Assembly: GCA_023954375.1 (NCBI GenBank)
Contig: JAMLIC010000006.1
Span: forward strand, 18,972 to 82,971
From: Planctomycetota bacterium
GTDB lineage: Bacteria > Planctomycetota > J058
Reading direction: 5' to 3'
Length of the DNA: 64,000 nucleotides
Part shown: piece after piece, positions 3,290-54,484 of the stretch
Layout of the letters: every line of letters begins with the position of its first letter
Numbering within the stretch: the stretch's first letter is position 1
Notes under the pieces: model-generated
Database searches by the model: none
What the model saw: only the letters and a program-made list of their open reading frames with translations
What the model was told of the DNA's origin: nothing
Made by a program: the position numbers and the translations under genes

Positions 3290-3385
3290 GGGCCGCGGAC
3301 GGCGGCCCCCCGAACCCTCGATCGGGCCGGGCCTCGCGGCCGGGCCCTTCGCTTGCGACGGTGGGCCGCAGAGGGAGGAGTCCCG

Positions 3386-34655: not shown

Positions 34656-34800
34656 CGCTGTTCAGCTTTTAGCTGTTAGCTGTTAGCTTTTGGCTCTTGG
34701 CCTTTAGCTCTCATTGGCCTCTCCTACTCTCAGGAGGCATGCAGCCGTCAAAGGCCAAGAGCTAACAGCTAACAGCTAAAAGCTAACAGCTAAAAGCTAC
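34656..34800. repeat. low-GC composite palindrome: inverted arrays of ~7 heptamer repeats (AGCTGTT/AGCTTTT...) flanking a ~35-bp spacer that itself contains CTCCT..AGGAG
   Basis: Left array 34664-34710 (agctttt agctgtt agctgtt agctttt ggctctt ggccttt agctctc). Right array 34747-34800 is its approximate reverse complement (gctaaca gctaaca gctaaaa gctaaca gctaaaa gct). GC is about 45% against ~74% around it. Directly abuts the IS91-family element. Confidence 0.85.
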
Positions 34801-35174
34801 AAGCTCCCACAGCACTTCGCATCGCCCTAACCAAGAGGCGATTGAGAGTCGCTCGCGGCGAGCACGGCCTCGCCCGGCCGGGCGCCTGCCCCGCGAGCGG
34901 CGAGCAATCGACGGGTTGAACTATGCCGCTGCGCGGCGGCGGTCGTTCGCGTGAGCCGCCCGGCTATGTGCAGATTGGCGGTCAGCGGGAGGGGCGAGGC
35001 TGTCTTGGCACGGGTCGCGAGCGAGGATCTTCGACGAGTCGGCACGCGACGGGGAGCGGGGCGGCCGACGCAAGTCCTTGGGCGGAGGTGCCGAGGACGT
35101 GGACCGCCGAGACCGGCGGCCCGAGGAAGGACGCGGCGGGGGAGTGGGCGGGGTCGTGGCGAGGCGCTGCGTCG

Positions 35175-36395
35175 TCACGTGTCCGGCTCCGGAAGGGGCG
35201 CCGACGCGATCTCGCCGGTGGCGGCGTTGATGGCGAAGCGGCGCAGGAAGCCCACCTTGCACGCGGGACAGCGACGCGGGTCGGTGCCGGTGAGGCGCTC
35301 GAGGAGCTCGCGCACCGTCGAGGGCACGGGTTCGGGGTTGGTCGTCTCGCCCTCGGCTGCGAGGACGGCGCGAGCCTGTTCGAGCTTGGTGTTGACGTTG
35401 CTCGGGGCGTGCACCCCGTAGTGCCGGATCTTCACGAAGCGGGCCGGCAGGATGTGCTGGAGGAAGCGGCGGATGAACTCGACGCCGGAGATCGTCGCCG
35501 TCTCGCCGTTCTTGGTGCTGAAGGTGACGTCCTCGGCGTCCATTTCGAGCAGGCGGTGGTTGGACATGCCCACGCGGTGGGTGTAGAGGCCGAGGTAGCG
35601 GAAGACCTGCTTGGGGCCGGCGAAGGGGCGCTTGGCGTAGACGACCCACTTCTTGCGATGGAGGCGGTCCTTGAGCTCGGCGAAGGCGTGGCGCTCGACC
35701 TCGACGTCGTCGCCGAGGTCGAGCTGGCCGTCGTCGACGAGCTGCGTGAGCCTGGCGAGGAACTTGCCCCGGAAGAGCGCGGAGAGCACCTTCACGGGGA
35801 AGAGGAACCGGCTGCGGCCGCCCGCGCTCACCCAGCGCGAGCCGTCCGGCGAGAGGCCGCCGCCGGTCACGATGCAGTGGGCGTGGGGGTGGTAGCCGAG
35901 GTCGCGCCGCCAGGTGTGGAGCACGGCGGTGATGCCGGGCGTGGCGCCGAGCCACTTCGGATCGGCGGCGAGGTCGAGGAGCGTGCGCGAGGCCGTGTCG
36001 AAGAGGAGCTTGTAGAAGACCCGCTGGTTGCGCCGCGCGAGCTGCTGGAGCTCGCTCGGTAGGGTGAAGACGACGTGGAAGTAGGGGACCGGCAGGACGC
36101 GCCGCATGCGCTCGAGGACCCACTTCGCCTGCCGGAGGCTCTGGCACTTCATGCAGTGCCGGTCCAGGCACGAGTTGTAGGCGGGCACCTCGTGTCCGCA
36201 GTGGTCGCAGACATCGAGGTGCCCGCCCTTGGCCGCCGTGCGGCACGCCACGATGGCGTCGAACGCGCGCTGCTGGCCGAACGTGGGTACGTAGCGAGAG
36301 CGGTACGCCTCGCCGAAGGCGCGGAACACGTCCGCCACCTCGAAGCGAGGGCGTTGCCGTTCGAGCTCGAGGGTGCAGCGCGCGTCGCGCTGCAC
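35175..36395 (-). CDS. IS91 family transposase (HUH Y2 rolling-circle transposase)
   Basis: 406 aa. N-terminal zinc-binding cysteines (CDHCGHE…CLDRHCMKC). HUH motif VLHTWRRDLGYHPHAH. Paired catalytic tyrosines FRYLGLYTHRV (Y-x3-Y). C-terminal CPACK. Confidence 0.9.
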   Translation of the reverse strand: MQRDARCTLELERQRPRFEVADVFRAFGEAYRSRYVPTFGQQRAFDAIVACRTAAKGGHLDVCDHCGHEVPAYNSCLDRHCMKCQSLRQAKWVLERMRRVLPVPYFHVVFTLPSELQQLARRNQRVFYKLLFDTASRTLLDLAADPKWLGATPGITAVLHTWRRDLGYHPHAHCIVTGGGLSPDGSRWVSAGGRSRFLFPVKVLSALFRGKFLARLTQLVDDGQLDLGDDVEVERHAFAELKDRLHRKKWVVYAKRPFAGPKQVFRYLGLYTHRVGMSNHRLLEMDAEDVTFSTKNGETATISGVEFIRRFLQHILPARFVKIRHYGVHAPSNVNTKLEQARAVLAAEGETTNPEPVPSTVRELLERLTGTDPRRCPACKVGFLRRFAINAATGEIASAPLPEPDT

Positions 36396-36401
36396 CGAGC
36401 G

Positions 36402-37328
36402 CTACCCGAGGACTCCGCCGGCTGCCGTGCCGATCAGGTCGAGCGGGCTCTTGCTCGCAGCGATGTGGCGCGTGCTGACGTGCGTGTAGCGCACCGTCGT
36501 GCGGATCGACGCATGGCCGAGGACCGCCTGCACGGTGCGCAGGTCCGCGCCTGACTCAAGGAGATGCGTGGCGAAGGAGTGCCGCAGGACGTGGGGCGTG
36601 ACCCGCTTCGTGAGCCCGCACGCCTCCACCGCGCGCCGGAGCGCGTGGCGGACGGCGCCATAGCTCACGAACCCGTCCGCGCCGTCGCCGGGGAAGAGGC
36701 GCTCGCGCCCCGGCTTGGCCGCCTTCCAGTACTCGCGCAGGAGCAGCAGGAGCCGCTCGCTGAGCATGATGTAGCGGTCCTTCTTTCCCTTACCCTCGCG
36801 GACGCGGAGAACCATGCGCTTGCTGTCGAGGTCCGCGCACGTGAGGCGGCACGCCTCGCTGATCCGGAGGCCGCCGCCGTACGCCGTCGAGAGGATCGCG
36901 CGATGGCGGAGCGACTCGATGGCCGCGAGCAGCTGCTCCACTTCGGTGCCGCTGAGGACGACCGGGAGCGACTTGGGCACCCGTGGCCACGGAATCGTCT
37001 CCACGACCTCGGGGCGCTGGAGCGTCCGCGCGTAGAGGAACTTCAGCGCCGCCACGAACATCTTCAAGCTCTCGGGCCCCACCCCGCGAATCTTGTGCAG
37101 GTGGAGCAGGAAGCAACGGACCTCCGTCTCGCCCAACTCAGCGGGAACGCGCATGTAATGCGCCACGAACGTGTCGGCGCACCGCGTGTACTCCTTGATT
37201 GTCCTGGCCGAGTAGTTCGCGAGCTCGAGGTCCGATACCATGCGGGCGCGGGTCGACTCAGAAAGCATGAGGCACTCCTGGAGCCTCGGGGAGCGGATCT
37301 CCTCGGGACCCCAGGGGCCGACTCGCAC
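36402..37328 (-). CDS. tyrosine site-specific recombinase (phage-integrase/XerD-like) associated with the IS91-family element
   Basis: Catalytic residues in canonical order (R…, HVLRHSFATHLL, GHASIRTTVRYTHV with the nucleophilic Tyr). Start is GTG 37328 or ATG 37268. Six nt downstream of it is the transposase start. Confidence 0.85.
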   Translation of the reverse strand: MRVGPWGPEEIRSPRLQECLMLSESTRARMVSDLELANYSARTIKEYTRCADTFVAHYMRVPAELGETEVRCFLLHLHKIRGVGPESLKMFVAALKFLYARTLQRPEVVETIPWPRVPKSLPVVLSGTEVEQLLAAIESLRHRAILSTAYGGGLRISEACRLTCADLDSKRMVLRVREGKGKKDRYIMLSERLLLLLREYWKAAKPGRERLFPGDGADGFVSYGAVRHALRRAVEACGLTKRVTPHVLRHSFATHLLESGADLRTVQAVLGHASIRTTVRYTHVSTRHIAASKSPLDLIGTAAGGVLG

Positions 37329-37459
37329 TTACGGTCAGTGACCACCTCCTGCGGCCCCGGGGATAGCGCCCCCGGGGTCGCAGGAGCGTCTCCGCTCACC
37401 CCGCGCTGCGCGACAGGCCTTCGTGGGCCAGCCCGCCAGCTGCCGCGCAGCGGCTTAGT

Positions 37460-38599
37460 TCAACGCCCCAGGAACGCCTCGACCTGCCCGCGGACGTCCA
37501 TGCCGTCCTTGTAGCCCAGCTCGAGCAGGCGCGTCGTGTAGGTCTCCTCGAACGACAGGTAGCTGAGCACCTCGGACGCCTCCTCGGGGCTGCCCATGCC
37601 GCGCAGCAGGTAGCGCAGGACGCGCGGGAGGTGCCAGGCCTCGTCGCTGGCGATGTGCCCCAGGTCCTCCGAGGGCTGGATCGAGAGGAGCTCGATCGGC
37701 CGCGCCGGGGCGCCGGCCGGGACCATCCCGGTGACCTCGAGCATGCGGTTGACGCCGTTCAGGCGCTCGACGTCGTAGTCGACGGCGTCGAAGAACACGG
37801 CGTTGAGGAGCACGCCGAGGATCCGCGCGATCGTCGGCTGCACCGGCCAGGCCGCGTCGTCGTGCGGCCCCGGCCGGCGCCGCACGCCGACGACGATCAG
37901 CCGGTCCGCGCCCAGGTGGATCGCGGGCGAGAGCGGCGCCGTGTTGCGCAGGCAGCCGTCGCCGTAGAACGCGCCGTCCACCTCGACCGGCTCGAAGAAG
38001 ATCGGGATCGCCGACGACGCCATGACGTGCTCGACGCCGAGGGTCACCTCGCGGCTGAGCCGCCGCCGTCGCCGCCAGGGCCGGACCCGCCCGGCCGACT
38101 CGTAGAAGGTGGTCGTGTGGGCCGAGGCGTAGTCGGTCGCCGTCAGGGCCACCCCCGAGAGCACCCCCTGCTCGACGTTGCGCCGCAGGCTGGTGAACGG
38201 CACGGTCTCGGCGAGCAGCCGCCGCAGGGGGCGGGTGTCGAGGAGCGCCGTCGCCGGCGCGCCGCCGACGACCGGGCTCACGGTCAGCGTCCGCATCCAG
38301 CGCGCGCCGATGCGCCCGAGCGCGAGCGGGCTCGTGTCGTAGACCATCTCGGGCCGGAGCCGCCCCCACAGCTCGCACAGCCGGCGCGCCCCGCCGAGGA
38401 AGTCGTGGCCGAACGCGCCCAGGAAGGCGGCGTTGATCGCCCCCGCGCTCACCCCGGCGATCGCCCTGAACGGCGCCGCGATCCCCAGGTCGGCGGCGAT
38501 CTCGGCGAGCGCCCGCGCCACCCCCGCCTGGTACGCCCCCCGCGCGCCGCCGCCGGAGAGGACGAGGCCCATCGGCACGACCGACCGCGAGAGGACCAC
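37460..38599 (-). CDS. patatin-like phospholipase
   Basis: GGGxRG oxyanion motif (LSGGGARGAYQAG), nucleophile elbow GVSAG, catalytic DG (FYGDG). Likely start ATG 38572. Stop codon TAA lies inside the IS right inverted repeat. Confidence 0.85.
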   Translation of the reverse strand: MVLSRSVVPMGLVLSGGGARGAYQAGVARALAEIAADLGIAAPFRAIAGVSAGAINAAFLGAFGHDFLGGARRLCELWGRLRPEMVYDTSPLALGRIGARWMRTLTVSPVVGGAPATALLDTRPLRRLLAETVPFTSLRRNVEQGVLSGVALTATDYASAHTTTFYESAGRVRPWRRRRRLSREVTLGVEHVMASSAIPIFFEPVEVDGAFYGDGCLRNTAPLSPAIHLGADRLIVVGVRRRPGPHDDAAWPVQPTIARILGVLLNAVFFDAVDYDVERLNGVNRMLEVTGMVPAGAPARPIELLSIQPSEDLGHIASDEAWHLPRVLRYLLRGMGSPEEASEVLSYLSFEETYTTRLLELGYKDGMDVRGQVEAFLGR

Positions 38600-38696: not shown

Positions 38697-40079
38697 TCAC
38701 TGCGCCGACGGCGTCGACCTCGGTCCGGAGCGCTGCGCGCCTGACGATGGCGTGAGGCGAGGAGGGCGGTGCTCGATCCGAGCGCCGAGCTGGCGAGCGC
38801 GCCCATGGAGCCATGCGTCGAGGCTGCCGCCCATGTCGCCCTGCTGGGCCGCCGCGCGCAGGTGCTCGCGCTCTGACCGCTGGTCACGATGCGCGTCGGC
38901 CGCGAGCGCCAGGAGGGCGTGCGCCTCATGGAGCTGGACGGACCGATTGCGAGGACCCGCCGCGTCCTGGGCGCACCTCAGGAAGTCGTCGTCCGAGAGT
39001 CGCCCCAGCAGCCACGTGTACACGGCGCGCGCCCAGGGAGAGCTCGTGACCGGCGGCTCCGACGACGGGGGCCCGCCAAGGAGCGCGGCCCAGGTCCAGT
39101 CGAAGCCGTCGCCCGGTGCGACCTCGCCGAACGCCTGCCGCGCGCGTGCCCTGTCTCCGTCGAGCAGCGCCTGGAGGGCCTGCGCCAGACGCAGGCCGCC
39201 GTCTCGCTGGCCTGGCTCCCCGGCCAGACCGAGGTCATCGGCGGCGAGCGGATCTCCTCGGATCACGCGCGCGCCCCACCGCGCCACGAGCAGAGCGCTC
39301 GAGGCCTTCCTGTCCTTCGCCCTGGCGATGGCCTCCGTCAGCGACACGATCGCGCCCTCGAGCTCGCCTCGCTGACGCAGCAGCGTCGCGCGGAAGAGCG
39401 CCACCTCGGGTTCGTCCCCCGCCCCCTCGAGGGCGGTGAGCGCGCCGTCGACGTCCCATCGCTCGGCGAGCGCCTCGGCGTGCAGCACGTGGAGCACGTC
39501 GCCGCGCCGCCCCTGAGCGCGGACGATGTGCCCCACCTCCTCGAACGCGGCGTCCGCGGCGGGCTCATCGTCGATCGCGTCGGCGGTCTGACCCATCAGG
39601 AGCCACGCCCGCGCCCGCCACTCCGGAGCGCCGTAGCCGCTGCCGACTCGCTGCTCCCTCTCCGTGAGCTCCAGCACCTTGCAGGCATCCGAGTGCGCCT
39701 GCCGGCGCGCGCCACGCCGCTGGTGAGCGGACGCCCGCAGGTAGTAGGCGAACGCGTCGTCCGGGGCGCACGCGAGCGCATCGTCGGTCAGCGAGACGAC
39801 GGCCTCGAGATCCCCCGCCGCGAGACGGGCCGACGCACGCTCGAGGAGCTCCGGCGTCGGGTCCGGGATCCCGTCCCAGGTGAGGTTGAACACCCATCCC
39901 CAGCCCCAGGCGACGAACCGGCGCCACCACCCGAGCGACGGCGCGGCCGACTCGCAGCCGAGGGTCGGGCAGCGACGGGCCTGGTCCCAGCACGCGGCGT
40001 GGAGCCACGTTCGACATCGCGGACACGCGACCTCGGGCGCGCCATCGTGGCAGAAGGCGCAGCGCTGCGGGCCGTTCAT
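38697..40079 (-). CDS. hypothetical protein with N-terminal Cys-rich zinc-ribbon-like region and TPR-like helical body
   Basis: N-terminus CAFCHD…CPRCRTWLHAACW…CPTLGC. The remainder is Ala/Leu/Asp-rich helical repeats. Start is 7 nt downstream of the giant TPR gene stop, same strand. Confidence 0.55.
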   Translation of the reverse strand: MNGPQRCAFCHDGAPEVACPRCRTWLHAACWDQARRCPTLGCESAAPSLGWWRRFVAWGWGWVFNLTWDGIPDPTPELLERASARLAAGDLEAVVSLTDDALACAPDDAFAYYLRASAHQRRGARRQAHSDACKVLELTEREQRVGSGYGAPEWRARAWLLMGQTADAIDDEPAADAAFEEVGHIVRAQGRRGDVLHVLHAEALAERWDVDGALTALEGAGDEPEVALFRATLLRQRGELEGAIVSLTEAIARAKDRKASSALLVARWGARVIRGDPLAADDLGLAGEPGQRDGGLRLAQALQALLDGDRARARQAFGEVAPGDGFDWTWAALLGGPPSSEPPVTSSPWARAVYTWLLGRLSDDDFLRCAQDAAGPRNRSVQLHEAHALLALAADAHRDQRSEREHLRAAAQQGDMGGSLDAWLHGRARQLGARIEHRPPRLTPSSGAQRSGPRSTPSAQ

Positions 40080-40086
40080 GGTCTGG

Positions 40087-43000
40087 CTACCCCCGCGCCA
40101 GCTTCTTCCTCAGCTCCAGGTACCCCGGCGACACCGAGAACGCGAGCAGGTCGCGCAGCTCGGGGACGTCGCGGAACGCCTTGACCACGCCCTCGGTCTT
40201 CGTCGGCACGCGGCCGCGCAGCGACACGTTCGTGGCCAGGATCGCCTTCACGGCGGGCAGGGGGCCGCCGGCGGCGAGGAGGCCGGCGCGGCTGGCGGCG
40301 AGGAGGACGCCCTGGCGGAAGCCCTCGAGGTCGAGCTGGTCGCGCCCGCGCCAGAGCGCCTCGTGGACCGGCGCCAGCTCGCGCAGGACCTCGGAGGCCT
40401 TGCCCGCGGCCTTGACCATGGCGCGCACGGCCTTGTCGTCGTCGCCCTTGAACGCGCGCCCCGCCTCGCACGCCTTGAGGAGGCCCAGGAGGAGGCCGCG
40501 CACCTGCTCGAGCGGCAGGGCGCGGAAGACCTCGAGGCCGAGCTTGAGCGGGGCCACGGCGCGGGCGATCACGAAGGCCTTCTCGGGCTCGGAGAGCCCG
40601 GCGAACACCTCGGGGCAGAGGATGAGCGACGGCGTCTTCGAGTGGCCGAGGACCGGCTCGGGGCGGCGCCAGTCGGGCATCCAGTAGATGTCGAGCTGCG
40701 AGATGTCGAGCAGGTCGCACACCCGCTTGACCAGCCGGTGCTCGGGGAAGAGGTCGCCCTCGAGCGTGAGGCGCGCGCTCAGCCAGCCGATCCCGTGGCT
40801 CTTGAGGTCGTCGGGCACCTGCCGGAGGAGGAGCCCGCCGGCCGCGCGGACGAGGTCGCCGAGCGGCCCCTTGCAGGCGTCGGGCAGGAGCCGGGCGGCG
40901 AAGGCCTCGTCCTTCAGCCGCCCGCGCAGCGACGGGAGCTGACCGGCGGCGGCCGCGACCGCCCCCTCCTCCTCGGCCGTCGTCGCGCGCAGGACCGACA
41001 GCGCCTGCAAGGCCTGCCCCAGCGGGTCGGCCCTGCCGCCGGCGCGCCAGCCGTCGGCGAGGGCGCGGTAGGACTCGACCAGCAGCGGGTCCTCGGCCAG
41101 GAGCTCGCGCTGGACGCGCTCGATCCCGGCCACGTCCTTCAGCTCCAGGTAGAGCCGCGACAGCGCCGCCCGCGCGCCCGAGTGCCCGGGCTCGAGCTCG
41201 AGGACCCGCTCGTACTCCGCGGCCGCCTCGGGGGCGAGCCGCTGCTGGGCCAGGAGGTCCGCGCGGCGCAGGCGCAGCGCCGCCTCGTCGCCCTTGCCCC
41301 GCAGGGCGTCGGCCGCGACCCCGAGGGCGCGCGCCTGCGCCTCGAGGTCGCCCTCCGCCTCGAGCAGCCGCAGGAGCGAGTCGAGGGTGTGCCGCTCGCG
41401 CGGGTCGAGCACGAAGGCCTGGTGGAAGCAGCGGCGGGCGAGCTTGCGCTGCTTGAGGCGGTCGCGCACGACGCGCGCCAGGTTGGCGTAGAGCTCCGCG
41501 CGCTTGCGCCGGTCGGTCTCCAGCTCGATCGCCCGCGTCAGCTGCCGGACGGCGGCGCTCCAGCGCTCGGCGCGCCCGTGGATCTCTGCCAGGCGCCGCG
41601 CCGTGCGCGCCCGGTGCTCGCCGTCGATCGCGAGCGTCGCCTGGAGGTGCGCCGCGGCGGCGTCCGCGTCGCCGAGCGCGAGCTCGCAGACGTCGGCGAG
41701 CGCGAGCCGCGCCTGCACCTCGACCTGCGGCGGCGCCCCCGCGAGCGCGTACTCCAGGTGCCGCCGCGCCTCGCGCGGGTCCTTGCTCTCCAGCAGCTTG
41801 CCCAGCTCGAGCTGCGCCTGGGGGCTCCGCGGCGCCACGCGCAGGCCGCTCCGGTAGAGCTCGAGCGCCCGGTCGGTCTCCTTGAGCTTCGACAGCACGC
41901 GCGCGAGCACGAGCTGATGCTCGGCCCGGGCCACCGGCGGCCGCGTCTGGGCCACCAGCTCCTCGTAGACGCCGCGCGCCGCCGCCCAGCCGCCGCCCTG
42001 GACGCACAGCCGGCCCAGGTCCTCGAGCGCCGCGAGGTGGTCGGGGACGAGCTCGAGCGCCTGCCGATAGCTCTGGGCGGCCCCCTCGGCCCGGCCGGCG
42101 CGCTCGAGGAGCTGGCCCCGGGCCCACAGGAGCTCGGCCCCGCGCTGGGGGTCCTTCGGCAGCTCCGGCGAGCTGGCGACCCGCTCGAGGCAGGAGAGCG
42201 CGGCCGCCGCGTCGTCGGCGGCCCACGCCAGCTCGGCGAGCGCCGCGAGCGCCGGGAACAGGGTCGGCGAGCGCTGCAGCGCCTGCTCGTAGCGCTGGCG
42301 CGCGGCGGGGAACTGCCCGAGCGCCTCCCGCCGCACGTCGCCCGCGCGCACGAGCGCCTGCGCGGCGTCGCGCGGGTCCTGCTCGAGGTCGGCGACCTGG
42401 TCCTCGAGGCGCGCCAGCGCGTCCGCCGCCGACTCGTCGGCGCCGAGCGCGCCGGCGCCGCGGGCGTGCAGCGCGCGCGCCAGGCCCTTGAGCGCCGGCA
42501 GGTGCGTCGGCGCCAGGCCGATCGCCTCGCGGTAGCGCGCCTCCGCGCCCGCCACGTCGCCTCGCCGCTCGAGGAGCCCGGCGATCCTGGCGAGCAGGTC
42601 GCCGCGCTTGAACTCGGTCCGCGCGTGGGCGACGGCCTGCTCGTAGGTGCCGAGGAGGTCGTCCCACAGCCCGGCCGCCTCCTGCGCCGCCCCGAGCTGC
42701 GCGAGCGCCGCCTCGTGCGCCGGGTCGGCCTTGAAGGCCTCCGCCAGGGCCTCGAGCGCCTGCGCCTCCTTGCCCTTGCCCGGGCGGCGCCGCAGGACCT
42801 CGACCACCTCGACGAGGGCGTCCGCCCGCTCGGTCCCCTCGCGCAGCCCGGCGAGCCGCTTGAGCGCCCGGACCAGCGCCGCCTCGCCCTTGGCGTCGCG
42901 CGCCGTCCGCCGCAGGACCGTCACCGCGAGCAGCGCCGCCTCGATGCAGCGCGCGTCCTGCCCCAGCGCCTCCTCCGCGGCCTTCAGCGCCTCCTCCGGC

Positions 43001-46000
43001 CGGCCCAGCCGCTCGGCGTTGACCCGCGCCAGCTCGAGGCGCAGCCCGACCGTCTCCGGCCCGCGCGCCCGCGCCAGCCGCCGGTCGATGATCTGCGCCA
43101 GCTCGTCCCACTCGCCCAGGTCGCGCAGGAGGTCGGTGAGCGCCGCCAGCGCCTCCTCGTCCTGCGGCGCGAGCTCGAGCGCCGCGCGGTAGGCGGCCAG
43201 CGCGTCCTGCTTGCGGTAGAGCTTCGACGAGAAGACGGCGCCCAGGCGCTTGTGCAGGCGCACGGCCTCGCCGGCGTCGCCGCACAGCGGCAGGTCGCGC
43301 CGCAGCGTGTCGACGAGCCCCGACCAGTCGCCGCGCGCCTCCTGCACGCGCGCGAGGTCGCCCAGGAGGTTCCGGTCCTTCGGCGCGAGGTGGCTCGCCT
43401 CGCCGAAGAAGCGCGCGGCCGTGAGCAGGTCGCCCAGCTTCTCCTCGGCGAGGTGGCCGGCCCGGCGCAGGCGCGCCTCGCGCTGGCGCGTCCCCTTCAC
43501 CAGCCCGATCTCGAGGCGGAGCGTGTCGAGGAGCTCCGGCCAGCGCTCCGTCTTCTGGTACAGGTCGCGCAGGGCCTCGACCGCCTCCAGGCCGGCGGGG
43601 TTCAGCGTGACCGCGCGCTGGAGCGCCCGGGCCGCCTTCTCGGCGTCATCGAGGCGGTCGCGCAGGACCCGCCCGAGGAGCACGAGCGCGTCGTAGGCCC
43701 GCGGCCCGCGGCGCCCCGCCTGGCCCTCGTAGAAGGTCACCAGCTCGGCCCACCGCGCCTGCCCCGAGAGGAGGCGCTCGAGCTCCGAGGCCACCCGCGC
43801 GTCGTCGGGGACGAGCTGGTGCAGCCGCTGCAGGACCTCGATCGCCTGGTCGTGGCGCCCCAGCTTCTCCTCGAGCAGCGCGGCGCGCTCGAGGAGCAGG
43901 TCGCGCGCGTGCGGGGCGCGGCCGTCGGCCGCGCGCTGCTCGAGCACGTGCGCCAGCTCGGCGTGGCGCCCGGCGAGCCGGTAGGCCGCCTCGAGCGCCT
44001 CGAGCGCCTGCGCCAGGAGCGGGCCGCGCCCGAGCTCGCGGGCCGTGACGAAGGCGTCGATGGCCTCCGACAGCCGGCCGAGCTTCATCTGGTGCCGCCC
44101 GAGCTTGAGCGCGGCCTGGGCCCGCTGCGCGTCCTTGCGCGCCAGCGCCAGGAGCCGCTCGAGGACGACCAGCAGGAGGGCGTCGTCCTCGACCTCGGCG
44201 CACAGCGGCTCGAGCGCCTCCCAGGCCTCCTGGTCGGCCGGGTTCGTCGCCGCCGCCTCGCGGTAGGCGGCGATCGCGCCCGGCGCGTCGGCGAGGCGCA
44301 GGGCGCGGATCTTCGCCGCCCGCCGGAGCATCCAGCCGGCGCGCGCCGGGTCGTCGACGGCCCGGGCCAGGAGCACCGTCGCGTCGGCGAGCTCGCCCCA
44401 CTGGCTGAGCTTCTCGGCCACGCGCGCGTAGGTGCCCAGCGCGTCCGCGTCGGACGGCATGAGCTCGCACGCGGTGCGCGCCAGCCCCAGCGCCCGCTGG
44501 AGCGACGCCTGGCGCGCGTCGCCGGCCGCCTTCTCTGCCAGCGCCTCGCGCAGGCGCGCCGCCTCCAGCGCGAGCAGCCGTCGCCGCTCGGCCTCGGTGA
44601 CGAGCCCCAGCTCCTGCTCGAGCGTCTCGGCCAGCCCCTCGTCGTCGCCGAGCGCGCGCAGGCCCCGGGCCAGCCCGCGGACCGCCTCGAGGTCGTCGGG
44701 CGCGTCGGCCAGGACCTTGCGGAAGCAGGCCACCGCCCGGCGCAGGTCGGAGAGCGCCTCCTCGTACAGGTGCGCCAGCTCGCGGCGCGCCTCGAGGCGG
44801 TCGACCGGCGACGGGGTGTGCTCGGCCAGCGCCTCGAGCGCCTGCGCCAGGGCGCGGAAGTCGAGCAGCTCGCGGGCGACGTCGGCCATCCCGCGCAGGG
44901 CGACGAGCGACACGGCGTCGAGGTGCAGGGCCTCGCCGTAGGCCTTCGCCGCGCCCTCGAGGTCGCGCAGCTCGTGGCGGAGCTGGCCCACGTGGGTCTT
45001 CAGCCACACGAGCCGCCCGCGGTCGACCTTCGCCGTCGCCTCGAGCTCGCAGACGCGGACGACCTCGGCCAGGCGGCCGGCCTGCCGGTGGATCGCCGCG
45101 AGCGCCCGGGCCGCGGGCACGCTCTGCGGGTCGAGCGCGAGCGCCCGCTCGAACGCCCGCGCCGCCTCCTCCTCCTGGCGCAGCTCGCGCTGGAGCAGGT
45201 GCCCCAGCTCGGTCTCCGCCGCGGCGCGGTCGAGCGCGCCGAGGTCCTCGCGGCCGGCCAGCGCGGACAGCGCCTGCGCCAGGTCGGCGTGGCGCCCCGC
45301 CTGGCGGTAGAGGCGGACGAGCGCCCGCAGGACGCGCACGAGGAGCTCGCCCGGCACCCCGGCGCGCCCGGCCCGCTCGCGCGCGGCCTCGAGCCGGGCG
45401 GTCGCCGCATCGGGCGCGCCCTGCTCCTCGTGGACGGCGGCCTCCTCGGCGAGCGCCTGGACCGCCTCGAGCTCGGTCGTGGCCCGGGCCGCCCGCTCGG
45501 CGAGCAGCCGCGCCAGCTCGGGCAGTCGCCGCCCGGCGCGGTAGAGCGCCTCGAGCCCCGCCCGCGCGGCGTCGTCGCCCGCGTCCGCCTCGAGCGCCTC
45601 GAGCCAGCAGCCCTCGGCCGCCGCCGGGTCGCCGAGCGAGCCGCGGTGCAGCTCGGCCATGCGGTGGCGCAGGCGCTGCACCTCGGCCGCGGCGCCCTCC
45701 TTGCCCAGCCGGCGCGCCTCGCCCTCGAGGTAGCCGAGGAGCTCCCGGTGCCGGGCCTCGCGCAGGTAGAGCCCCTCGAGCGCCTGGCGCACGAGCCCGT
45801 CCTGCGGGTCGCGCCGGTGGAGCTCGGCGTAGACCTCGATCGCCCGCCCGGGCGTGTAGACCGGTCCGCTCGCCAGCTCGCCCACGCCCTTGAGGAGGAG
45901 CGCCTCGTCGCCCGGGTCGCGGGCGTGCTTCAGCGCGCGCTCGGTGGCGTCGAGGAGCGCCGACGCGTCGCCGGCCGCCTTGGCCAGGCGCATGAGCAGC

Positions 46001-49000
46001 CCGGCCAGGACGCGCGCCTCGTCGGGCTTGGTCCGCTCGACGAGCTCGAGCGCCGCGCGCACGCACACGGCCGCCGCCGCCGGCCGCCGCAGCTTCGTCT
46101 CCAGGATCCGCGCCTGCTCGAGGAGGAGGCGCGCCCGCTCGCCGTCGTCGGCGGTGACCTCGGCCAGCCGGCCGAGCACCTCCTGGTGCGCCGCGTGCTC
46201 GCCGAGCGCGCCGCGCAGGCGCGCCAGCTCGGCCAGCGTCTCGGGGTCGCGGGGCGCCTGCTGGAGGAGGAGCTCGAGCGTCGCCGCGGCCAGCGCCTGC
46301 TGGCCGAGCCGCTGCTCCTCGACCTGGGCGGCGCGGCGGAGGAACGCCGGCGCCTCCTCGCTCAGCGCCCGGGCCAGGCCGGCGCGGCGGTGCAGCGTGC
46401 GCGCCAGCTCCTGCCAGGCCTCGCGGCGGGCGTAGATCCGCTCGAGCGCGTCGAGCGGCCCCGCCCGCAGCGGGTCGCGGCGCGCCGCGCGCTCGTGGGC
46501 GCGCGCGGCCGCCTCGGGGTCGGCCTCCTCGAGCAGCGCCCCGGCGCGCTCGTAGAGGTCGGACGCGGCCCGGTCGTCCTCCTCGACGACGGCCAGCGAC
46601 TGGAGCACGTCGGCCAGCTTCGCCGCGGCGCCGGCAGCCTCGTACAGCTGCGCCAGCTGCCCGAGCGCCGCCTTGTCCTGCGGGGCCAGCGCGCGGGCGC
46701 GCTCGAGCTCCTCGGTCGCCGCGGCGGCGTCGCCCAGCCGGTCGCGCAGGACGGCCGCGCGCTCGAGGCGCCGCGCCAGCTGCGCGGCCCGCTCGCGGGC
46801 CACGTCGGCCTCCCGCGCGAGCAGGTCGGCCGCCTCCGCCCAGCGCTCCGCCTCGAGCAGGTAGCGGCGCAGGAGCGCCAGCACCGAGGCGTTGTCGGGC
46901 ACCTCCTCCAGCGCCTCGCGCAGGGCCTGGATCGCCTCGTCGCGCCGGCCCAGCCGCTCGTGCGCGTCGGCCACCTTGAGCGCCCACTGGGCGCGCTTGC
47001 GCGGGTCGACCTCCTGGTCGCGCAGGCGCTGGCGCACGCGCACGAGGTCGGTCCAGGCGCCGGCCGCCTGGTGGACGCGCTCGAGGCCGACGAGCGGGCG
47101 CGGGTCGTCGGGCGCCCGGGCGGCGGCCTCGGCGTAAGCCGTCGCCGCCTCGGCGCCGCGGCCGAGGTGCCGCTCGAGGACCTCGCCCAGCTCGACGTAC
47201 AGCGCGGCGAGCGCGCGGGCATCGGCCTCCCCCGATGCTGCGTGGCGCGCCGCCATCGCGGCGGCCTCCGCCCGGAGGACGCGCGCCAGCTCCTCCCACG
47301 CGTGGGCGGCGGCGTAGAGGCGGCGCAGCCCCTCGGTCGCGGCCGGGTCACCCGGGCGCAGGGCCAGGACCTGCTCCCAGTGGCCGCGCGCCTCCTGCGC
47401 GCTCTTCAGCTCGTCCTCGGCCAGGCGCGCCATGCGCTCGTGCAGGGCGGCGCGCTCGTCCGCCGAGGGGGCGTGCGCGGCGAAGCGGCGCAGGAGGTCG
47501 TAGAGCCGCGCCGGCTCGCCGGCCTGCACGAGCAGGCGCTCGAGGGCCTCGAAGGCCGGCCGGCAGCGCGGGTCGCGCGCCAGCGCCGCCTCGAGGAGCG
47601 CCTCGGCGCGCGGGCGCAGGTCGAGCGCGGCGTAGCGCTCGGCGCCGGCGAGGGCCCGGGCGACGAGGCGCTCGCCCGCCTGGGCGCCCTCCTCCTGCGC
47701 GAGGTGGTCGACCTCGCGCGCCAGCGCGTCGGCCAGGCGCCGGTCGTCCTTCACGCGCGCGCACAGCGCCTGGAGCGCCTCGAACGCGGCGGGGTCCGGG
47801 GCGGCGTCGAGCGCCCGCCCCCAGGCCTGGATCGCGTCGTCCGGGCGGCGAAGCCGCTCGTCGAGGGCGCGGGCGGCGCGCTGCAGGAGCGCGGCCTTCT
47901 CGCCCTTCGCGCGGGCGAAGGCGGCGCGCTCCTCGAGCGCCGGGACCAGCTCGTCCCACAGCTCCTCCTGCTCGTAGAGCTCGAGGAGCGGGTCGAGGAG
48001 CTCGGGGGAGGGCTTGCGCCGCAGGGCGGCGCGGTAGCTGTCGATCGCCTGGCGGGGCAGGCGGAGCTGCTCGCGCTCGACGCGCGCCCGCTCGTCGAGG
48101 AGGCGCGCCGCCTTGTGCGGGTCCTTGGTGAGGTCGGCCAGCGCCCCGAGCGCCGGCGCGAGCTCCTGCCACCACTCGCAGCGGCGGCAGAGCGAGGTCA
48201 GCCGCTCGAGGACGTCCGCGCGCCGCGGGGCGGCCTGCGCGGCCGCGCGCAGCTCGTCGGCCGCGGCCGGCAGGTCGCGCAGCTCCTCCTCGAGGAGCTT
48301 CGCCCGCTGCAGGCGCAGCTCGACCGCCTGGGCCTCGTCGGTCACCGCCCGGCGCTTGCGGTCGAGCGCCGCGGCCAGCCGGGGCCAGTCGCGCGCCGCC
48401 TCGTGCAGGGCGGCGAGCCCGTCGAGCGCCTCGAGGGCGTCCGGATCCTCCTCGAGCGCGGCCTCGAAGTGCTGCGCCGCCGCCTCGCCCTCGCCGCGCG
48501 CCGCCTTGCGCCGGGCCAGCTCGATGAGGCTCCGCGCCGCGCTGCGCGTCCGGGGCACGACCTCCCGCACCCGGAGGAGGAGCGCCTCGTAGGCCTGCTC
48601 GCGCTTCAGCTCGAGGAGGAGCTTGGGCAGCTCGCCCAGGGCGACGCACTGCGGGTCGCCGAGCGCGAGCACCTCCTGGTAGAGGTCGGCGGCGCGGGCG
48701 GCGTCGCGCAGGTGGTGATGGACGATCAGCGCCGCTTGCCGCAGGCGCTCCTCGCGCCGGGCGGGCTCCGCCGAGCGGCGCGCCTGGCACTCGTACGCGC
48801 CGGCGAGCGCCGCCCAGTCGCGCGCCTCGAGGTGCAGGTCGCGCAGGCGGCGCCAGGCGTCCTCGTCGTCGGGGGCCAGGCGCAGGACCTCCTCGAGCGC
48901 GGCGACGGCGCCGGCCGGGTCCCCCAGGCGCTCCTGCCGCAGGGCGGCGAGGTGCTTGCCCAGCGCCACGCGATGGTCGGCCGCGGGCGTCGCCTCGAGC

Positions 49001-52000
49001 TGGCGCGCGAGCGTCTCCACCAGCGCCGCCGCGTCGGTCTTCGGGTCGAGCGTGCGGGCGCGGCCGCGGAGCGCCCGCAGGTCGGCGGGCGCGAGCGCCA
49101 GGGCCGCGTCGAAGGCCTCCCGCGCCGCGGGGGGCTGCTTCAGGTGCTCGAGGCGCACCTCGCCCAGGGCCACGAGGCGCTCGACGCGCTGCCGCCGGTC
49201 GGCCTCGAGCTCGCCGAGCCGGGCGAGCGCCGCCGCCAGCTCCGCCCAGGCGCGCTGACCGCGGAGGAGCGGGGCCAGCCCGCGCAGGGCCTCAACGCTG
49301 TCGGGGTCGTGCTTCAGGGCCTGCTCGTAGGTGGCGCGGCCGCCGCCCTTGTCCTTGCGCTGCCCGGCGGCGAGGCGGACCAGCAGCGCGGCCTTCCGCT
49401 TCGGGTCCGGCTCGAGCTCGGCCTCGCGCGCGGTCCAGCGCGCCAGGGCGGCCCGGTCGTTGGCCTCGCGGGCGAGGGTCGCCAGCCAGCGCACGGCCTC
49501 GAGGCGCGCCGGGTCGGCCTCGAGGGCGCGCTCGAACAGCTGGCGGGCGCGCAGGGCGTCGTCCTCGCGCTGGCGCCGCACGCGCCCGGCCTCGACCAGG
49601 AGGTCCGCCCGGCGCGCGCCGTCCTGCTCGAGGCCGCCGGCGGCCTCGAGGTGGTCGGCGAGCGGCGCGCCCAGGCTCATGCGGCGCTCGATGCGGAGCA
49701 GGCAGCGCAGCGCCTCGCGCTCGTCCGGGCCCCAGGCGCTCGGCGCGCCGGCCCCCAGCGCCTCGAGCAGGAGGGCGCGGGCGGCCGGCAGGTCGCCGAG
49801 CTGGAGGCCGCGCAGCTCGGCCTCCTCGCGGAGGACGGCGAGGCGCTCCGGGCGGTCGAGCTCGGCCGGCTCGGCGCCGCGGCGGGCGGCCAGGGCGTCT
49901 GCGAGCGGCCCCGGGCGGTTGGCGGGCCGCAGGGCGCGGACGCGCGCCTCGCGGCACCGCGCCCAGCGCGGGCGCGCCGCCTCGGCCTGGTCGAACGCGG
50001 CCAGCGCATCGTCGAGGCGGCCGAGCCGGGCGAGCATCTCGCCGCGGCGCACGAGCAGCGCGGCCCGCTCGCCCTGCGGCAGGGCCTCCGCCGCCGCGGC
50101 GAGGGCCACCTCGAGGCGGTCGAGCCGCCCGAGGCGCGACAGGAGGGCGAGCAGGGCCTCGTGGCCGGGCGCGTGGGTCGGCGAGGCGGCGATCGCGGCG
50201 CGGTAGGCGTCCTCCGCGCTGGTCGGGTCGCCCGCCTGCTCCTGCACCTGCCCGCGCTCGACCTGGAGGGCGGCGGCGCCGGCGGCGTCGCCCTCGGCCG
50301 CCGCGGCCTCGGCCGCGTCGCCGAGGACGCCGAACGCGCGCGGGAGGGCGTCGGCGCGCACGAGCACGCGCCCGAGGCGCGTGAGCAGGTCGCGCGAGCG
50401 CGGCAGCACCGCCAGCGCCTCGTCGAGGGTCACGGCCGCCTCGACGGGCGCGCCGAGGTCGCGCTCCTGCACCTCGGCCGCCTCGACGAGCCGCTTCACC
50501 CGCACGGCCGGGGGGCCGCCCAGGGCGGCCGCCTGGCGCAGGACGCGCACCAGCTCGTCGTGGCGCCCGAGCCGGCGCTCGACCCCGGCGAGCTGCTCCC
50601 ACGCCGGGTCGTCCGGGTCGCGCAGCCCGGCGGTGAGCGCCTCGAGGGCGCGCCCGGCGCGCGGGAGGTCGTCGAGCTCCTCGTCGCACACGGCCGCGAG
50701 CTCGCGGCGGCAGCCCGCCGGGTCGAGGTCCGGCGCGGGGGGCGCGGGGAGGGCGGCCGCCTCCTCGAGGAGCCGCGCGAGGTCGCCCCAGCGCTGCGTG
50801 CGTCGGTAGAGGCGGCGGAGGCCCTGGAGGGCGGCCGCGTCGGTCGGGTCCTGGGCGAGGACGCGCTCGAGCGCGGCGACCGCCGCCGGCGGCAGGGCCA
50901 GCGGGCCCTCGGCGAGCGTCGCCTGGTGGCGCCACATGTCGGCGCGCAGGGCGGGGTCGGCCGCCTCCGCGGCGACCTGCTCGACCGCGTGCAGGAGCTC
51001 GCGCTGGGCCGGCAGGCCCGCCTCGGCGGCGAGGGCCGCGAGCCGCTCGAACGCCTCGCGGTGGTCGGGGACGGCGCGCAGCGCCCGGTGCCAGGCCGCG
51101 CGCGCGCGGGCGGGGTCCTGCAGCCGCGCCTCGCACAGCCGCGCCAGGTCGGCCGCGAGCGCGCCCGTGCGCGGGCGGTCGCCCTCGACGGCGACGAGCG
51201 CGGCGTCGAGCCGCTGCGCGGCGTCGGCCGCGCGGTCGGCGTCGAGCAGGAGCCGCACGGCCCCCTCCAGCGCGCCCGCGTCGGCCGGCTCCTCGGCGAG
51301 GACCTCCTCGTAGGCGGCCAGCGCGCCGGCCGCGTTGCCGCGCCGCTCCTCGAGGCCGGCCAGCTCGAAGCGGATCCGGCGCTGCGCGGTCGGCTCGGGC
51401 TCGAGGCGCGTCCAGGTCGCCAGCGCCTTCGCCAGGCCGGCGTCGTCGCCGAGGGCGCGGGCCGCGTCGACCCGCAGGCGGACGGCCTCGAGCGCGCCGT
51501 CGCCGTCGGGGACGAGGGCGAGCGCGGCGTCGAGCGCCTCGACCGCGGCCGGGGCCTGGTCGAGGCGCTCGAGGCGCACGGCGCCGAGCTGGCGCAGGGC
51601 GGCGGCCCGCGCCGCGGGGTCGCGCTCGAGCTCCGCCAGGCGCGAGAGCGCGTCGGCCAGCGGCTGCCAGCGCTCCTCGGCGCGCAGGAGCGGGGCGAGG
51701 TCGCGCAGGGCGGGCGTGGGGTCGGCGGGCCCGAGCGCGAGGAGCTGCTCGAGCGCCCGGGCGGCGGCGGGGCCGTCCTTCAGCTGGTCGCGGCGCACGA
51801 GGGCCAGCTCGCGCAGCCAGACCTTCTGGTTGTTGTCGCCGCGGGCGGCGCCGGCCACGCGCCGCTCGAGCACGCGGGCCACCTCGGCCCAGTCGCCCGC
51901 GCGGCGCGCGATCAGCTCGAGGCGCTCGAGCGCCTGGCCGTCCTTCGGGTCGAGCGCCACGACCTGCGCCAGCGCCTCGGCGGCGCGGGCGTCGTCCTTG

Positions 52001-53277: not shown

Positions 53278-53397
53278 GCCCCGCCTGTCGTTGTCGAGGA
53301 AGCGCCGCTAGTCGTAACTCTTGCGGAGGTAACAGCTAGGAGCGTCGACAGGCTAGCACCGCGGCCGAGGGCGGGCAACGCCGCCCGGACGGGGGGC

Positions 53398-54006
53398 TCA
53401 GACGGGGCCCTGGGATGGCCGCAGGGCCGCGAGCCGCCGGAGGTTGAGCCAGTTGATGAGGAAGTGGGCCACGATCGGGGCCAGGAGCGAGCCCGACCAG
53501 GCGGCCAGCAGGCCGAAGAGGAGCCCGGCCACGACGGCGAAGGCCGTCCACGGGCGCAGCTCGGGGACCAGCGGCACGTGGAGGAGGCCGAAGACGAGGC
53601 TCGCGGCGACGATCCCGGCCGCCGCGGCGGCGGGGCCCTCGCCCAGGGGGCCCGTGAACGCGCCGATGAGGACCGGCTGGAGCCACCCGCGGAAGAAGGC
53701 CTCCTCGCCGATGCTCGAGTAGACGGCCACGACGAGCGCCTTCTCCCGGTCGAGCGACGGACCCAGGAGGTCGGGGCTGGTGAGGACGTTGCGGAGGTAC
53801 TCGGCCATGCGGCGGTACCAGCCGACGCCCTCGAGGAGGCGGCCGGCCTGCACGACGCCGAGCGCCAGGGCCACGGCCGCGGCGAGCGGGCCCCACAGGA
53901 GGGCGGGCGTGTCGGGGGCGCGGAAGAGCGACGGCGCGCCGCTCACGCGCACGAGGACGGCCGCGACCACGAGCATGCCGGCGTAGATGAAGAGGAAGCG
54001 GTTCAT
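53398..54006 (-). CDS. CPBP family intramembrane glutamic endopeptidase (CAAX protease-like)
   Basis: Multi-TM 202-aa protein with motif 1 EEAFFRGWLQ, motif 2 FGLLH and motif 3 HFLINWLN. Confidence 0.8.
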   Translation of the reverse strand: MNRFLFIYAGMLVVAAVLVRVSGAPSLFRAPDTPALLWGPLAAAVALALGVVQAGRLLEGVGWYRRMAEYLRNVLTSPDLLGPSLDREKALVVAVYSSIGEEAFFRGWLQPVLIGAFTGPLGEGPAAAAAGIVAASLVFGLLHVPLVPELRPWTAFAVVAGLLFGLLAAWSGSLLAPIVAHFLINWLNLRRLAALRPSQGPV

Positions 54007-54049
54007 CGCGGGGGGGCCAGGGTAGCAGCCTCCGCGCCCCGGCCGGCGG

Positions 54050-54484
54050 TCATCGGGACAGCAGCGCCTCGAGGCGCGGCCGCGGGAGCGCGCCGCTCTC
54101 GACGGCGGCGAGCGCGCCGCCGCGGAACACGGCGAAGGTGGGGACGCCCCGCACGCCGACCTGCGCCGCGTGGCGCGTGTGGCGGTCGGTGTCGACCTTG
54201 ACCACGATCAGCCGACCGGCGTGGGCGCGCGCGAGGTCGGCGACGACGGGCGCGACCATCCGGCAGGGGCCGCACCAGGTGGCGTGGAAGTCGACGAGCA
54301 CCGGCACGGGCGCGCCGCGGATGAGGCGCTCGAGCGCGTCGTCATCGACGTCGACGGGGGTGCCCGCGAGGTCGAGCGCCGCGCGGCAGCGCCCGCACAC
54401 GGGTCGGTCCTCCGCCCGCTCGGCCGCGACGCGGTTGATCCCGCCGCAGGCGGGGCAGCGGTAGACCAGCGACGCCGTCGTCAT
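54050..54484 (-). CDS. trxC: thioredoxin with N-terminal zinc-finger extension (thioredoxin-2 type)
   Basis: N-terminal CPACG…CGRC zinc ribbon, then a thioredoxin fold with WCGPC active site. Confidence 0.85.
   Translation of the reverse strand: MTTASLVYRCPACGGINRVAAERAEDRPVCGRCRAALDLAGTPVDVDDDALERLIRGAPVPVLVDFHATWCGPCRMVAPVVADLARAHAGRLIVVKVDTDRHTRHAAQVGVRGVPTFAVFRGGALAAVESGALPRPRLEALLSR

Follow-up and report, generated by a model that had tools for sequence, protein, structure and literature searches.

What is the nature of a low-GC palindrome that lies directly beside an insertion sequence (IS) in a very high-GC genome, and, in particular, is it a part of that IS? The question is raised by a 64-kb stretch of DNA from a Planctomycetota bacterium (here ‘the window’, with all coordinates below being window positions). 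Inverted arrays of 7-nt repeats, i.e., of ‘heptamers’, are found there between the 3' end of a solute-binding protein (SBP) gene and an IS that encodes both an IS91-family transposase and a tyrosine recombinase. An earlier note on this locus had suggested, among other possibilities, that the arrays serve that IS. The answer argued for here is instead that the palindrome, going by its sequence, is a self-contained, non-coding insert of ~192 bp, that is, neither an IS end nor IS cargo nor an attachment site. Probably it is a target of the IS rather than its tool and, at the same time, an example of an under-described class of repeats.

That the palindrome is independent of the IS, and that the associated insertion polymorphism is real, can be stated with high confidence. 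A fuller explanation combines an independent insert of foreign or mobile origin, a role for that insert as an RNA hairpin barrier, and the later landing of the IS beside it by TAAC targeting. Taken as a whole, that combination has perhaps an even chance of being correct.

A palindromic insert between two gene ends

The palindrome, as confirmed by inspection of the sequence, spans 34657-34805 and begins 22 nt past the SBP stop codon (34634), a spacing which the earlier note also had given. Its left arm, the 5' arm of the hairpin on the + strand, is a T-type array (34664-34712, + strand) of seven AGCTKTT units, which decay as one reads along it: AGCTTTT, AGCTGTT, AGCTGTT, AGCTTTT, GGCTCTT, GGCCTTT, and AGCTCTC. 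The right or 3' arm is an A-type array (34753-34805, + strand) of ~7 AGCTAAM units, in the order GGCCAAG, AGCTAAC, AGCTAAC, AGCTAAA, AGCTAAC, AGCTAAA, AGCTACA, and AGCT, with three CTAAC on the + strand. Between them is a central spacer (34713-34752, of no particular strand) which contains a mini-hairpin, CTCCT (34721-34725) pairing with AGGAG (34733-34737). Both the inverted arrays and this centre thus are present as the earlier note described them, and the low GC content that it pointed out is seen as well, i.e., 47% over 34657-34805 versus 76.7% across the window.

Across the 46 nt that separate them, the two arms match as complements at 85% over 48 nt, and at 92% over 36 nt in a register that is shifted by whole units; the arms, that is, differ mainly by insertions or deletions of units. 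A period of 7 is found on both arms by Tandem Repeats Finder (4.4 and 6.6 copies), and an 18-nt array pattern that matches nine times here matches zero times in 100 shuffles. The arrays are heptanucleotide arrays in the usual sense, consisting of unspaced 7-nt units in at least three copies, in non-coding DNA between two stop codons. Non-coding is meant here strictly: the units hold TAG on one strand and TAA on the other, and, 7 not being divisible by 3, an arm cannot be crossed in any frame of either strand.

As RNA, the palindrome is predicted to fold at -96.7 kcal/mol (+ strand) and -98.2 kcal/mol (- strand), versus -60 and -68 kcal/mol for shuffles (z-scores of -9.7 and -7.4), with none of 200 shuffles equalling its stability. 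Each strand is predicted to form a hairpin of ~60 imperfect base pairs, with pairing that reaches past the heptamers (34646-34663 with 34806-34827). Searches for known signals were negative. Rfam 15 gave no match within the window at the gathering threshold, and a permissive search gave only generic hairpins, at no more than 28 bits versus cut-offs of 56-107. A consensus scan of 34300-35300 found no promoter-like or terminator-like site, and neither arm is followed by the T run of an intrinsic terminator. A resemblance to HutP-like, UAG-N4 protein-binding RNA was considered and set aside.

The comparison with empty sites for which the earlier note had called is provided by five syntenic relatives (L158 and L284-L287), the SBP of which is ~95% identical to that of the window. 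In these relatives the stop codon of the SBP gene and that of a convergent, patatin-like gene abut, with 0 nt between them, the junction reading ...AAGCGCTGA|TCAGCGGCCCAGG (TGA|TCA; TCAACGG in L158). The 192 nt that in the window separate those two stops (34635-34826), nearly all of which are one imperfect palindrome of no particular strand, are absent from all five genomes and therefore represent a lineage-specific gain. In L282, which is more distantly related, 12 nt separate the two stops; two others (L159 and L160) have a different arrangement, without arrays. The palindrome is present as a single copy within the window, and no array copy is found in 21 kb of L158.

Removal of the IS at TAAC|, on paper, leaves the window reading ...AAGCGCTAG-[192 nt]-CTAACGCCCCAGG, with the C-terminus of the patatin-like protein (...L G R stop) retained. 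That is, joining 34827-34831 to 37465 onward restores ...CTG GGG CGT TAG, equivalent to the relatives' ...L G R stop. Both stops flanking the insert are then TAG, versus TGA in the relatives. By this reconstruction the insert sits at the sole position at which insertion would harm neither gene.

In the relatives (at ~6015-6035 in L284-L287 and at ~11015-11035 in L158) the convergent genes end in a perfect 12-nt palindrome, CGCTGA|TCAGCG, which exists because both proteins end in Arg-stop. The insert of the window is located at the symmetry centre of that junction palindrome. A further contig, L161 (ERR4335697; 4160-4249), carries an 85% identical SBP and has a (CAGCTCT)x3 array ~45 nt past the SBP stop, with the contig ending inside of the array. 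This points to an apparently independent gain of heptamers at the same gene end.

A palindromic junction raises the possibility that the insert arose in place and without function, i.e., with slippage expanding a heptamer and a template switch at the stop-codon palindrome then making an inverted copy. The perfect symmetry of the native junction would fit with such an origin, as too would arms that differ by whole-unit insertions or deletions and match at 92% only upon shifting, and heptanucleotides are reported, as cited in PMC4679880, to be the commonest long simple repeats of prokaryotes. There is no AGCT seed at the relatives' junction, however, and an insert of 47% GC, with a 46-nt centre and 21-29-nt flanks, cannot derive from slippage of local sequence that is 77% GC. 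The same unit and polarity, moreover, recur in distant phyla (see below). Origin in place is considered to be quite unlikely.

Limits of the neighbouring IS and its probable TAAC targets

If the palindrome is an insert, then how is it related to the IS? As delimited using its other copies along with over 120 members of its family, the IS occupies 34832-37464 and the palindrome lies outside of it. Two Logan contigs, L001 and L002, carry this IS at 100% identity, and both end at window position 34827. The shared IS sequence thus reaches 34827/34832, placing the IS end 22-26 nt from the palindrome; the 110 bp proposed in the earlier note had been measured from an internal inverted repeat at 34915. 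L234, a relative at 68-77% amino acid (aa) identity, diverges directly after ...CTTGGTTA.

The transposase-gene end of the IS (the oriIS side) consists of an outer module, an imperfect palindrome that starts with CAAGAGGCGATTGAGAG (34832-34914, - strand); it is identical in L001 and L002 and conserved in L234 up to ...CTCTTGGTTA. Next is an inverted, internal copy of the IS terminal motif, GGTTGAACTATGCCGCTGCGCGGC (34915-34940, + strand), as recognized by comparison with the family. A 384-aa, Y2 (HUH) transposase of the IS91 family follows (35175-36329, - strand; Pfam Y2_Tnp and Zn_Tnp_IS91; gene call in L002) and, upstream of the transposase gene and likewise within the IS, a 288-aa tyrosine recombinase (36402-37268, - strand; Pfam Phage_integrase and Phage_int_SAM_4), the exact product of which is found on L001 and L002. 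At the integrase-gene end (the terIS side) is the terminal motif proper, GCCGCGCAGCGGCTTAGTTCAAC (37439-37464, + strand), which was traced by 20-mer matches in metagenomes.

The 20-mer of this terminus, GCGCAGCGGCWTAGTTCAAC, is found at at least 120 metagenome loci and, wherever the sequence is long enough, lies 55-400 nt from a tyrosine recombinase gene, which is followed by an IS91 transposase gene. Among the matches listed, the recombinases and transposases are only 30-80% identical (aa) to those of the window. More than 120 metagenome contigs (loci L162-L281) have the terminus GCCGCGCAGCGGCTTAGTTCAAC itself without a single base changed. By sequence, then, it is the mark of a very large IS91-plus-tyrosine-recombinase subfamily with ends far better conserved than its proteins. 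The terIS end reads ...GTTCAAC| in all 120 of the matches listed, with flanks diverging right after ...CAAC. An inverted copy of the motif is found in family members 2.4-2.6 kb from the terminus, near the 3' end of the transposase gene, past which the IS continues as a 75-95-nt palindromic module.

On the oriIS side the flank reads YTAAC| in the window, L234, L241, L174, and L212, and GTTAGG on the other strand in L271; these are few junctions, as the automatic search for them recovered few only. In the window this flank is the CTAAC at 34827-34831 (+ strand), the CTA of which (34827-34829) would once have been the patatin gene's TAG stop (- strand). There is a 3-nt AAC ambiguity at the IS junction, though with either placement of the cut a TAAC is needed in the target. 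Probably, judging from these flanks, the IS family inserts beside TAAC.

A bias of that sort would bear directly on the adjacency of IS and palindrome. TAAC occurs in the window 11 times (8 on the + strand, 3 on the - strand) versus ~78 times as expected from base composition, a depletion of about seven-fold. Six of those 11, including all six CTAAC, fall within one 197-bp segment (34640-34835), with the others at 4035 (- strand), 25897, 53315, 53330, and 57285. For an IS choosing among TAAC sites, this segment therefore is the expected landing place, at about even odds locally versus 0.3% by length. TAAC targeting is seen here as the rather likely cause of the adjacency, and it is probable that AGCT arrays are targets, or surrogate cleavage sites, for the IS, as opposed to parts of it.

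The contig L001 (SRR12157868_39448; positions 560-680) provides a second view of IS and heptamers. It is a circular unitig, with first and last 30 nt identical, in which the IS closes on itself without the palindrome: ...TTAGTTCAAC|AGCTAACAGCTAAC|CAAGAGG... (as read on the + strand of the window). The joint, CAAC|AGCTAACAGCTAAC|CAAG, is exactly two AGCTAAC units. Three structures are possible for L001, namely a free circle, a tandem dimer, and an IS that lies within a heptamer array. To the extent that a joint sequence can be read in this manner, it shows the same IS in or against an (AGCTAAC)n array in a related genome. Such a joint could have come about by tandem insertions at successive TAAC or by cleavage at a surrogate TAAC that is one or two units away. 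A crossover of attP and attB, as mediated by the tyrosine recombinase, was rejected as its source, with no consistent core found.

Some observations do favour a reading of the palindrome as a functional part of the IS91/recombinase element, whether as attachment (att) site, as surrogate terIS or oriIS, or as origin of a captured module. The palindrome lies only 22-26 nt from the IS end, its units contain the TAAC cleavage or target motif, and, from the two units at the L001 joint, the enzyme probably is able to act on such arrays. That much of the earlier note's terIS-surrogate or recombinase-site idea survives, i.e., that AGCTAAC contains TAAC and that it forms the L001 joint, though not that the array belongs to the IS. 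Arrays are absent from other copies of the IS (L001, L002, and L234) and from all 120 IS-family metagenome loci listed, which speaks against an att site as a feature of the element. Conversely, like arrays are common at intergenic sites that lack an IS91 transposase (at least 120 genome loci and 34 viral loci): among 154 array-bearing loci listed, totalling 1.18 Mb, no IS91 transposase was found and only two or three tyrosine recombinases. With no arrays at IS loci and no IS91 at array loci, the association is not a general one. The earlier note had named two findings that would refute an IS-linked role, namely such sequences at many intergenic sites away from mobile elements and their absence from further copies of the IS, and both were made here.

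Further against such a reading is that the palindrome lies on the oriIS side, since one-ended IS91 transposition carries DNA that is beyond terIS (PMC13181058); co-mobilization by that route was rejected on this ground, and also because the left junction lacks TAAC. A captured-module origin is without support as well: there is no Rep gene, 7-nt units are not iteron-sized, and the locus is the 3' junction of two genes. Derivation of the palindrome from this IS as one of the miniature inverted-repeat transposable elements (MITEs) was also rejected, there being no similarity to the IS ends. IS-linked readings of the palindrome thus are largely refuted, and that the palindrome functions as part of the element is considered highly improbable.

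The IS does possess a palindrome of its own. Joined as in a circle (37431-37464 plus 34832-34950), its ends form one continuous hairpin of ~150 nt at -61.6 kcal/mol (DNA parameters). The consensus of the attC sites of integrons is RYYYAAC...GTTRRRY, and the outer boxes of this hairpin, GTTCAAC and GTTGAAC, fit RYYYAAC and GTTRRRY, respectively. As so modelled, the circular form looks like a gene cassette carrying its own recombinase. Many integrase-side flanks (loci L162-L281, first 100 nt after ...GTTCAAC) share AAGnCGnTGCAG...hairpin...GTTRRRY (e.g., L188, L249, L252, L238, and L224), and the first eight flank positions are biased, i.e., A A G n C G n T. Possibly these copies of the IS lie within palindromes resembling attC, or else within modules of their own kind.

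The genes about the insert and IS are as follows. The SBP gene (33612-34634, + strand; stop TAG) is of iron(III) type with a lipoprotein signal (Pfam SBP_bac_8/6/1/11), and its product is identical to MCO5166411.1 (P0122) of a Planctomycetota metagenome-assembled genome. The patatin-like phospholipase gene (37460-38599, - strand; Pfam Patatin) is convergent with it, in synteny with L158 and L284-L287, and its TGA stop now is provided by the IS terminal motif (TCA at 37460-37462). Downstream of the patatin gene is an open reading frame (ORF) of 4773 aa (39880-54201, + strand), and at 30621-33380 (- strand) is a 919-aa ORF that is syntenic with a gene of L158 annotated with a major-vault-protein shoulder domain (PF11978).

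A wider class and a possible role

Scanning of viral and genome collections for three AGCTAAM units plus AGCT gave 34 viral loci and at least 120 genome loci. The latter span Acidobacteriota, Gemmatimonadota, Bacteroidota, Cyanobacteria, Desulfobacterota, Chloroflexota, Planctomycetota, the candidate phyla radiation (CPR), and Gammaproteobacteria. Viral control cores of the same composition gave only 2 loci (ACGT) and 8 loci (GACT), versus the 34 of AGCT. The architecture of the window, (AGCTKTT)n-spacer-(AGCTAAM)n, is seen in Acidobacteriota, Gemmatimonadota, Bacteroidota, Cyanobacteria, Desulfobacterota, and phage contigs, with spacers that are unrelated across genomes; an 18-nt probe from the central spacer of the window had no matches in viral contigs.

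An inverted partner array is present no more than 120 nt away at 28 of the 120 genome loci listed. The T-array precedes the A-array in 26 of these pairs, with the reverse order seen twice, once with a different heptamer; in viral contigs the T-then-A pattern is found at 6 sites and the reverse at 0. As this order reads alike on both strands, it represents a true polarity. Judged by architecture, the palindrome is a member of a widespread, recurrent class: (AGCTKTT)n, variable spacer, (AGCTAAM)n.

Gene contexts in these other genomes were obtained using an ORF heuristic weighted by GC content at third codon positions (GC3), which replaced an earlier version that had been confounded by shadow ORFs ending in the arrays. 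Of the 39 palindromes so resolved, the flanking genes are co-directional for 35, divergent for 3, and convergent for 1. Measured from the T-array's outer edge, the upstream stop is at approximately -19 to +7 nt, its TAG often being furnished by the array itself; from the A-array to the next start codon there are 3-40 nt.

In some phage contigs (~57-60% GC), almost all gaps between genes are occupied by a heptamer palindrome, with unit numbers that vary about a conserved centre, GCGCGC-N4-GCGCGC plus AAGTAACTT. That centre is asymmetric and is found in both orientations relative to genes. The contigs in question are L007, L020, L030, and L032 (IMGVR_UViG_3300021255_003533), L018, L035, and L288 (IMGVR_UViG_3300028833_000521), and L005, L015, and L010. 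BLAST of the phage palindrome against annotated phages gave no match, and BLAST of the window element against plasmids gave only unrelated heptamer arrays in Pseudanabaena, Borreliella, and Mycetohabitans. Genomes and phages with AGCT arrays often bear other heptamer arrays nearby, of AGCCGAT, GCCGCCA, GAACTAA, or CTCCTAA (L147 at 3199-3312, L024 at 1413-1657, L029 at 3866-4110, and L005 at ~4100-4155). The process that makes or spreads arrays thus is not confined to one unit.

How then might the palindrome of the window have come about, and what might it do? The explanation given an even chance above begins with an insert that would have arrived as foreign or mobile DNA, as suggested by its composition, by its presence or absence among relatives, and by the multi-copy state of such palindromes in phage contigs. 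There it would be transcribed as a shared 3' end of the SBP and patatin genes. In relatives, which are without a spacer, each transcript must run into the other gene, whereas the insert would give ~190 nt plus a stable hairpin between the genes in both directions. It would serve, that is, as a bidirectional barrier that limits read-through into the opposite gene and shields 3' ends from exonucleases, though not as a classical terminator, as there is no U-tract. The IS, its target being very rare and clustered chiefly in the insert, would then have come down at the CTAAC that lies 22 nt from the right arm. The RNA-barrier role at two 3' ends, as drawn from sequence and predicted fold, is put at less than even odds.

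A number of points weigh against this combination. The insertion is not a clean one, with GATC of the relatives replaced by AG plus 192 nt plus CT; no target-site duplication is visible, and no second copy of the non-heptamer parts was found. The native TCAAC may be the one at 37460-37464, and palindrome and IS may instead have arrived together by a 5-nt microhomology event, although by that history the IS must still have inserted earlier at a CTAAC beside a heptamer palindrome. There is no known mobilizing enzyme for such an insert, nor was a candidate mobilizing gene found. Without a U-tract, the palindrome is not called as terminator-like, and its RNA role is purely a matter of what its sequence and fold imply. 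The convergent context of the window is atypical, only 1 of the 39 class palindromes being so placed, and the contexts elsewhere derive from a crude heuristic. The sense strand, lastly, is the more stable in only 11 of 34 class palindromes, which does not favour an mRNA-optimized structure; comparing the folds of sense and antisense strands, and G:U with A:C pairs, leaves an action as RNA and one as DNA undistinguished.

Much of the same evidence can be read as that of a purely selfish element. Here the palindrome would be REPIN- or MITE-like, i.e., moved by an enzyme that is encoded elsewhere in the genome or on a phage, lacking any host function, and surviving where it is harmless, for example, at a neutral point between abutting stops. 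Presence and absence among ~95% identical relatives, a foreign base composition, and a different heptamer array after the same SBP gene in the 85% relative all are as would be expected. So too are phage copies that fill nearly every intergenic gap with a conserved centre and variable units, an asymmetric centre in both orientations relative to genes, and the lack of a sense-strand folding bias. The missing target-site duplication and mobilizing gene tell against this reading, however, as does the lack of a second copy in 64 kb. Centres also are wholly different between genomes, leaving common descent unproven, and the precision with which palindromes of many genomes are positioned at stops and starts is more suggestive of function or of strong filtering. 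The selfish palindrome is the main rival to the combined explanation, if itself on the unlikely side; origin in place, and the protein-bound array that is considered next, are less likely.

Ribbon-helix-helix proteins of the omega type bind heptad operators and centromeres, and by analogy unspaced, 7-bp heptads could be bound cooperatively, as DNA, by a small protein, thereby serving as an operator or insulator. The strict 7-bp phase, the AGCT core conserved on both strands, and the lack of strand bias in folding are compatible with that idea, and it has been speculated, in a preprint on Nostoc, that heptamer repeats close to promoters are bound by a protein yet to be identified (bioRxiv 10.1101/2022.06.06.494920). 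In the window, however, the array is found at two 3' ends, with no promoter-like site, and neither a candidate binding protein nor a partition or regulator gene is nearby. As an explanation of this palindrome, protein binding is judged very unlikely.

A more ambitious synthesis would treat AGCT-heptamer palindromes as a single, undescribed gene-boundary class across bacteria and phages. Such palindromes would have one set polarity, the T-array lying at a stop and the A-array ahead of the following start, would be gained whole, and would serve as tandem landing pads for a large IS91-plus-tyrosine-recombinase family, the circular junction of which rebuilds an attC-like hairpin (GTTCAAC...GTTGAAC). 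In that entirety the idea is doubtful.

Returning to the combined explanation, why might a locus such as this matter? It supplies a natural comparison of with and without, i.e., genomes of ~95% identical SBP that possess either touching stops or a 192-bp palindrome, for which effects on transcripts are measurable. The class follows a simple rule that can be tested using genomes: polarity, position at stop and start codons, and stops in all six frames. The palindrome provides also a concrete reason why, in genomes of very high GC content, insertion sequences are drawn to low-GC repeats, with more than half of local TAAC found in the repeat. And it serves as a warning that an odd sequence beside an IS need not be part of that IS.

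Comparison with known systems

In IS91-family elements, the target tetranucleotide resembles the tetranucleotide at which terIS is cleaved, the target is not duplicated, and circular forms are known (PMC13181058). The IS of the window is similar in its Y2 transposase and circular form, in leaving its target unduplicated, and in having a palindrome subterminal to both ends, as well as in its flanking TAAC, which resembles the CAAC of terIS. It differs in that its target is TAAC rather than GTTC, CTTG, or CTCG, and in that the subfamily carries a tyrosine recombinase gene in place of orf121. The heptamer palindrome, unlike the ends of IS91, is outside of the element and is not conserved with it.

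Iteron origins consist of direct repeats of ~17-22 bp along with a rep gene and an AT-rich region, and were rejected as a match: here the units are 7 nt and inverted, and the neighbours are SBP, patatin, transposase, and recombinase genes. The independent, MITE-like insertion suggested in the earlier note fares better in part. The independent insertion stands, given empty sites in five close relatives, though a MITE as such was rejected, since the whole of the insert is palindromic and there is no flanking duplication.

Like an attC site (57-141 nt), the element is an imperfect palindrome, and its units resemble attC core and inverse-core sites at 6 of 7 positions each (GTTAGCT versus GTTRRRY, AGCTAAC versus RYYYAAC). 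The polarity is opposite, however, with GTTAGCT...AGCTAAC here and RYYYAAC...GTTRRRY on both strands of attC, and there are arrays rather than single R and L boxes. An integron attC site was rejected on the basis of this order, GTTAGCT-type first and AGCTAAC-type second, with an attC-like order rare within the class (2 of 28 pairs).

Bacterial heptanucleotide repeats of the contiguous kind have been on record since about 1990, with no accepted function, and of the phenomena so far described they come nearest to the arrays of the window. Known arrays include the short tandemly repeated repetitive (STRR) sequences of cyanobacteria and the TAACTGA repeats that precede start codons in Beggiatoaceae, Cyanobacteria, and Bacteroidetes (PMC4679880), as well as the heptamers that in Nostoc are repeated close to start codons (bioRxiv 10.1101/2022.06.06.494920). 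What they do is described in recent papers as unresolved still, translational or post-transcriptional roles having been proposed. The arrays considered here resemble these in consisting of unspaced, intergenic 7-nt units, oriented to the next start codon and scattered across phyla, and TAACTGA shares TAAC with TAACAGC, which is a permutation of AGCTAAC. Known arrays are almost all direct, with 1 inverted set among 170 in BOGUAY (PMC4679880), whereas those here are paired and inverted, of fixed polarity, and built upon a palindromic AGCT core. A search of a literature library found no description of AGCTAAC or AGCTGTT arrays or of an inverted, polarity-fixed AGCT form.

There remain the repetitive extragenic palindromic (REP) sequences, including bacterial interspersed mosaic elements (BIMEs) and REPINs. 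REPs, as described in PMC3733652, are units of 20-40 nt that bear a conserved head (GTAG or CGTC), occur in tens to hundreds of copies, and are linked to genes for REP-associated tyrosine transposases (RAYTs). The palindrome of the window differs in that its arms are 7-nt arrays and in that there is one copy in 64 kb. It is like these elements in being an extragenic, imperfect, hairpin-forming palindrome at gene ends. REP, BIME, and REPIN sequences often lie within operons, have been proposed to be mRNA stabilizers or weak terminators, and are preferred targets of some insertion sequences. It is thus REP and REPIN sequences which, at the level of analogy, would seem to offer the closest functional counterpart to the heptamer palindrome.

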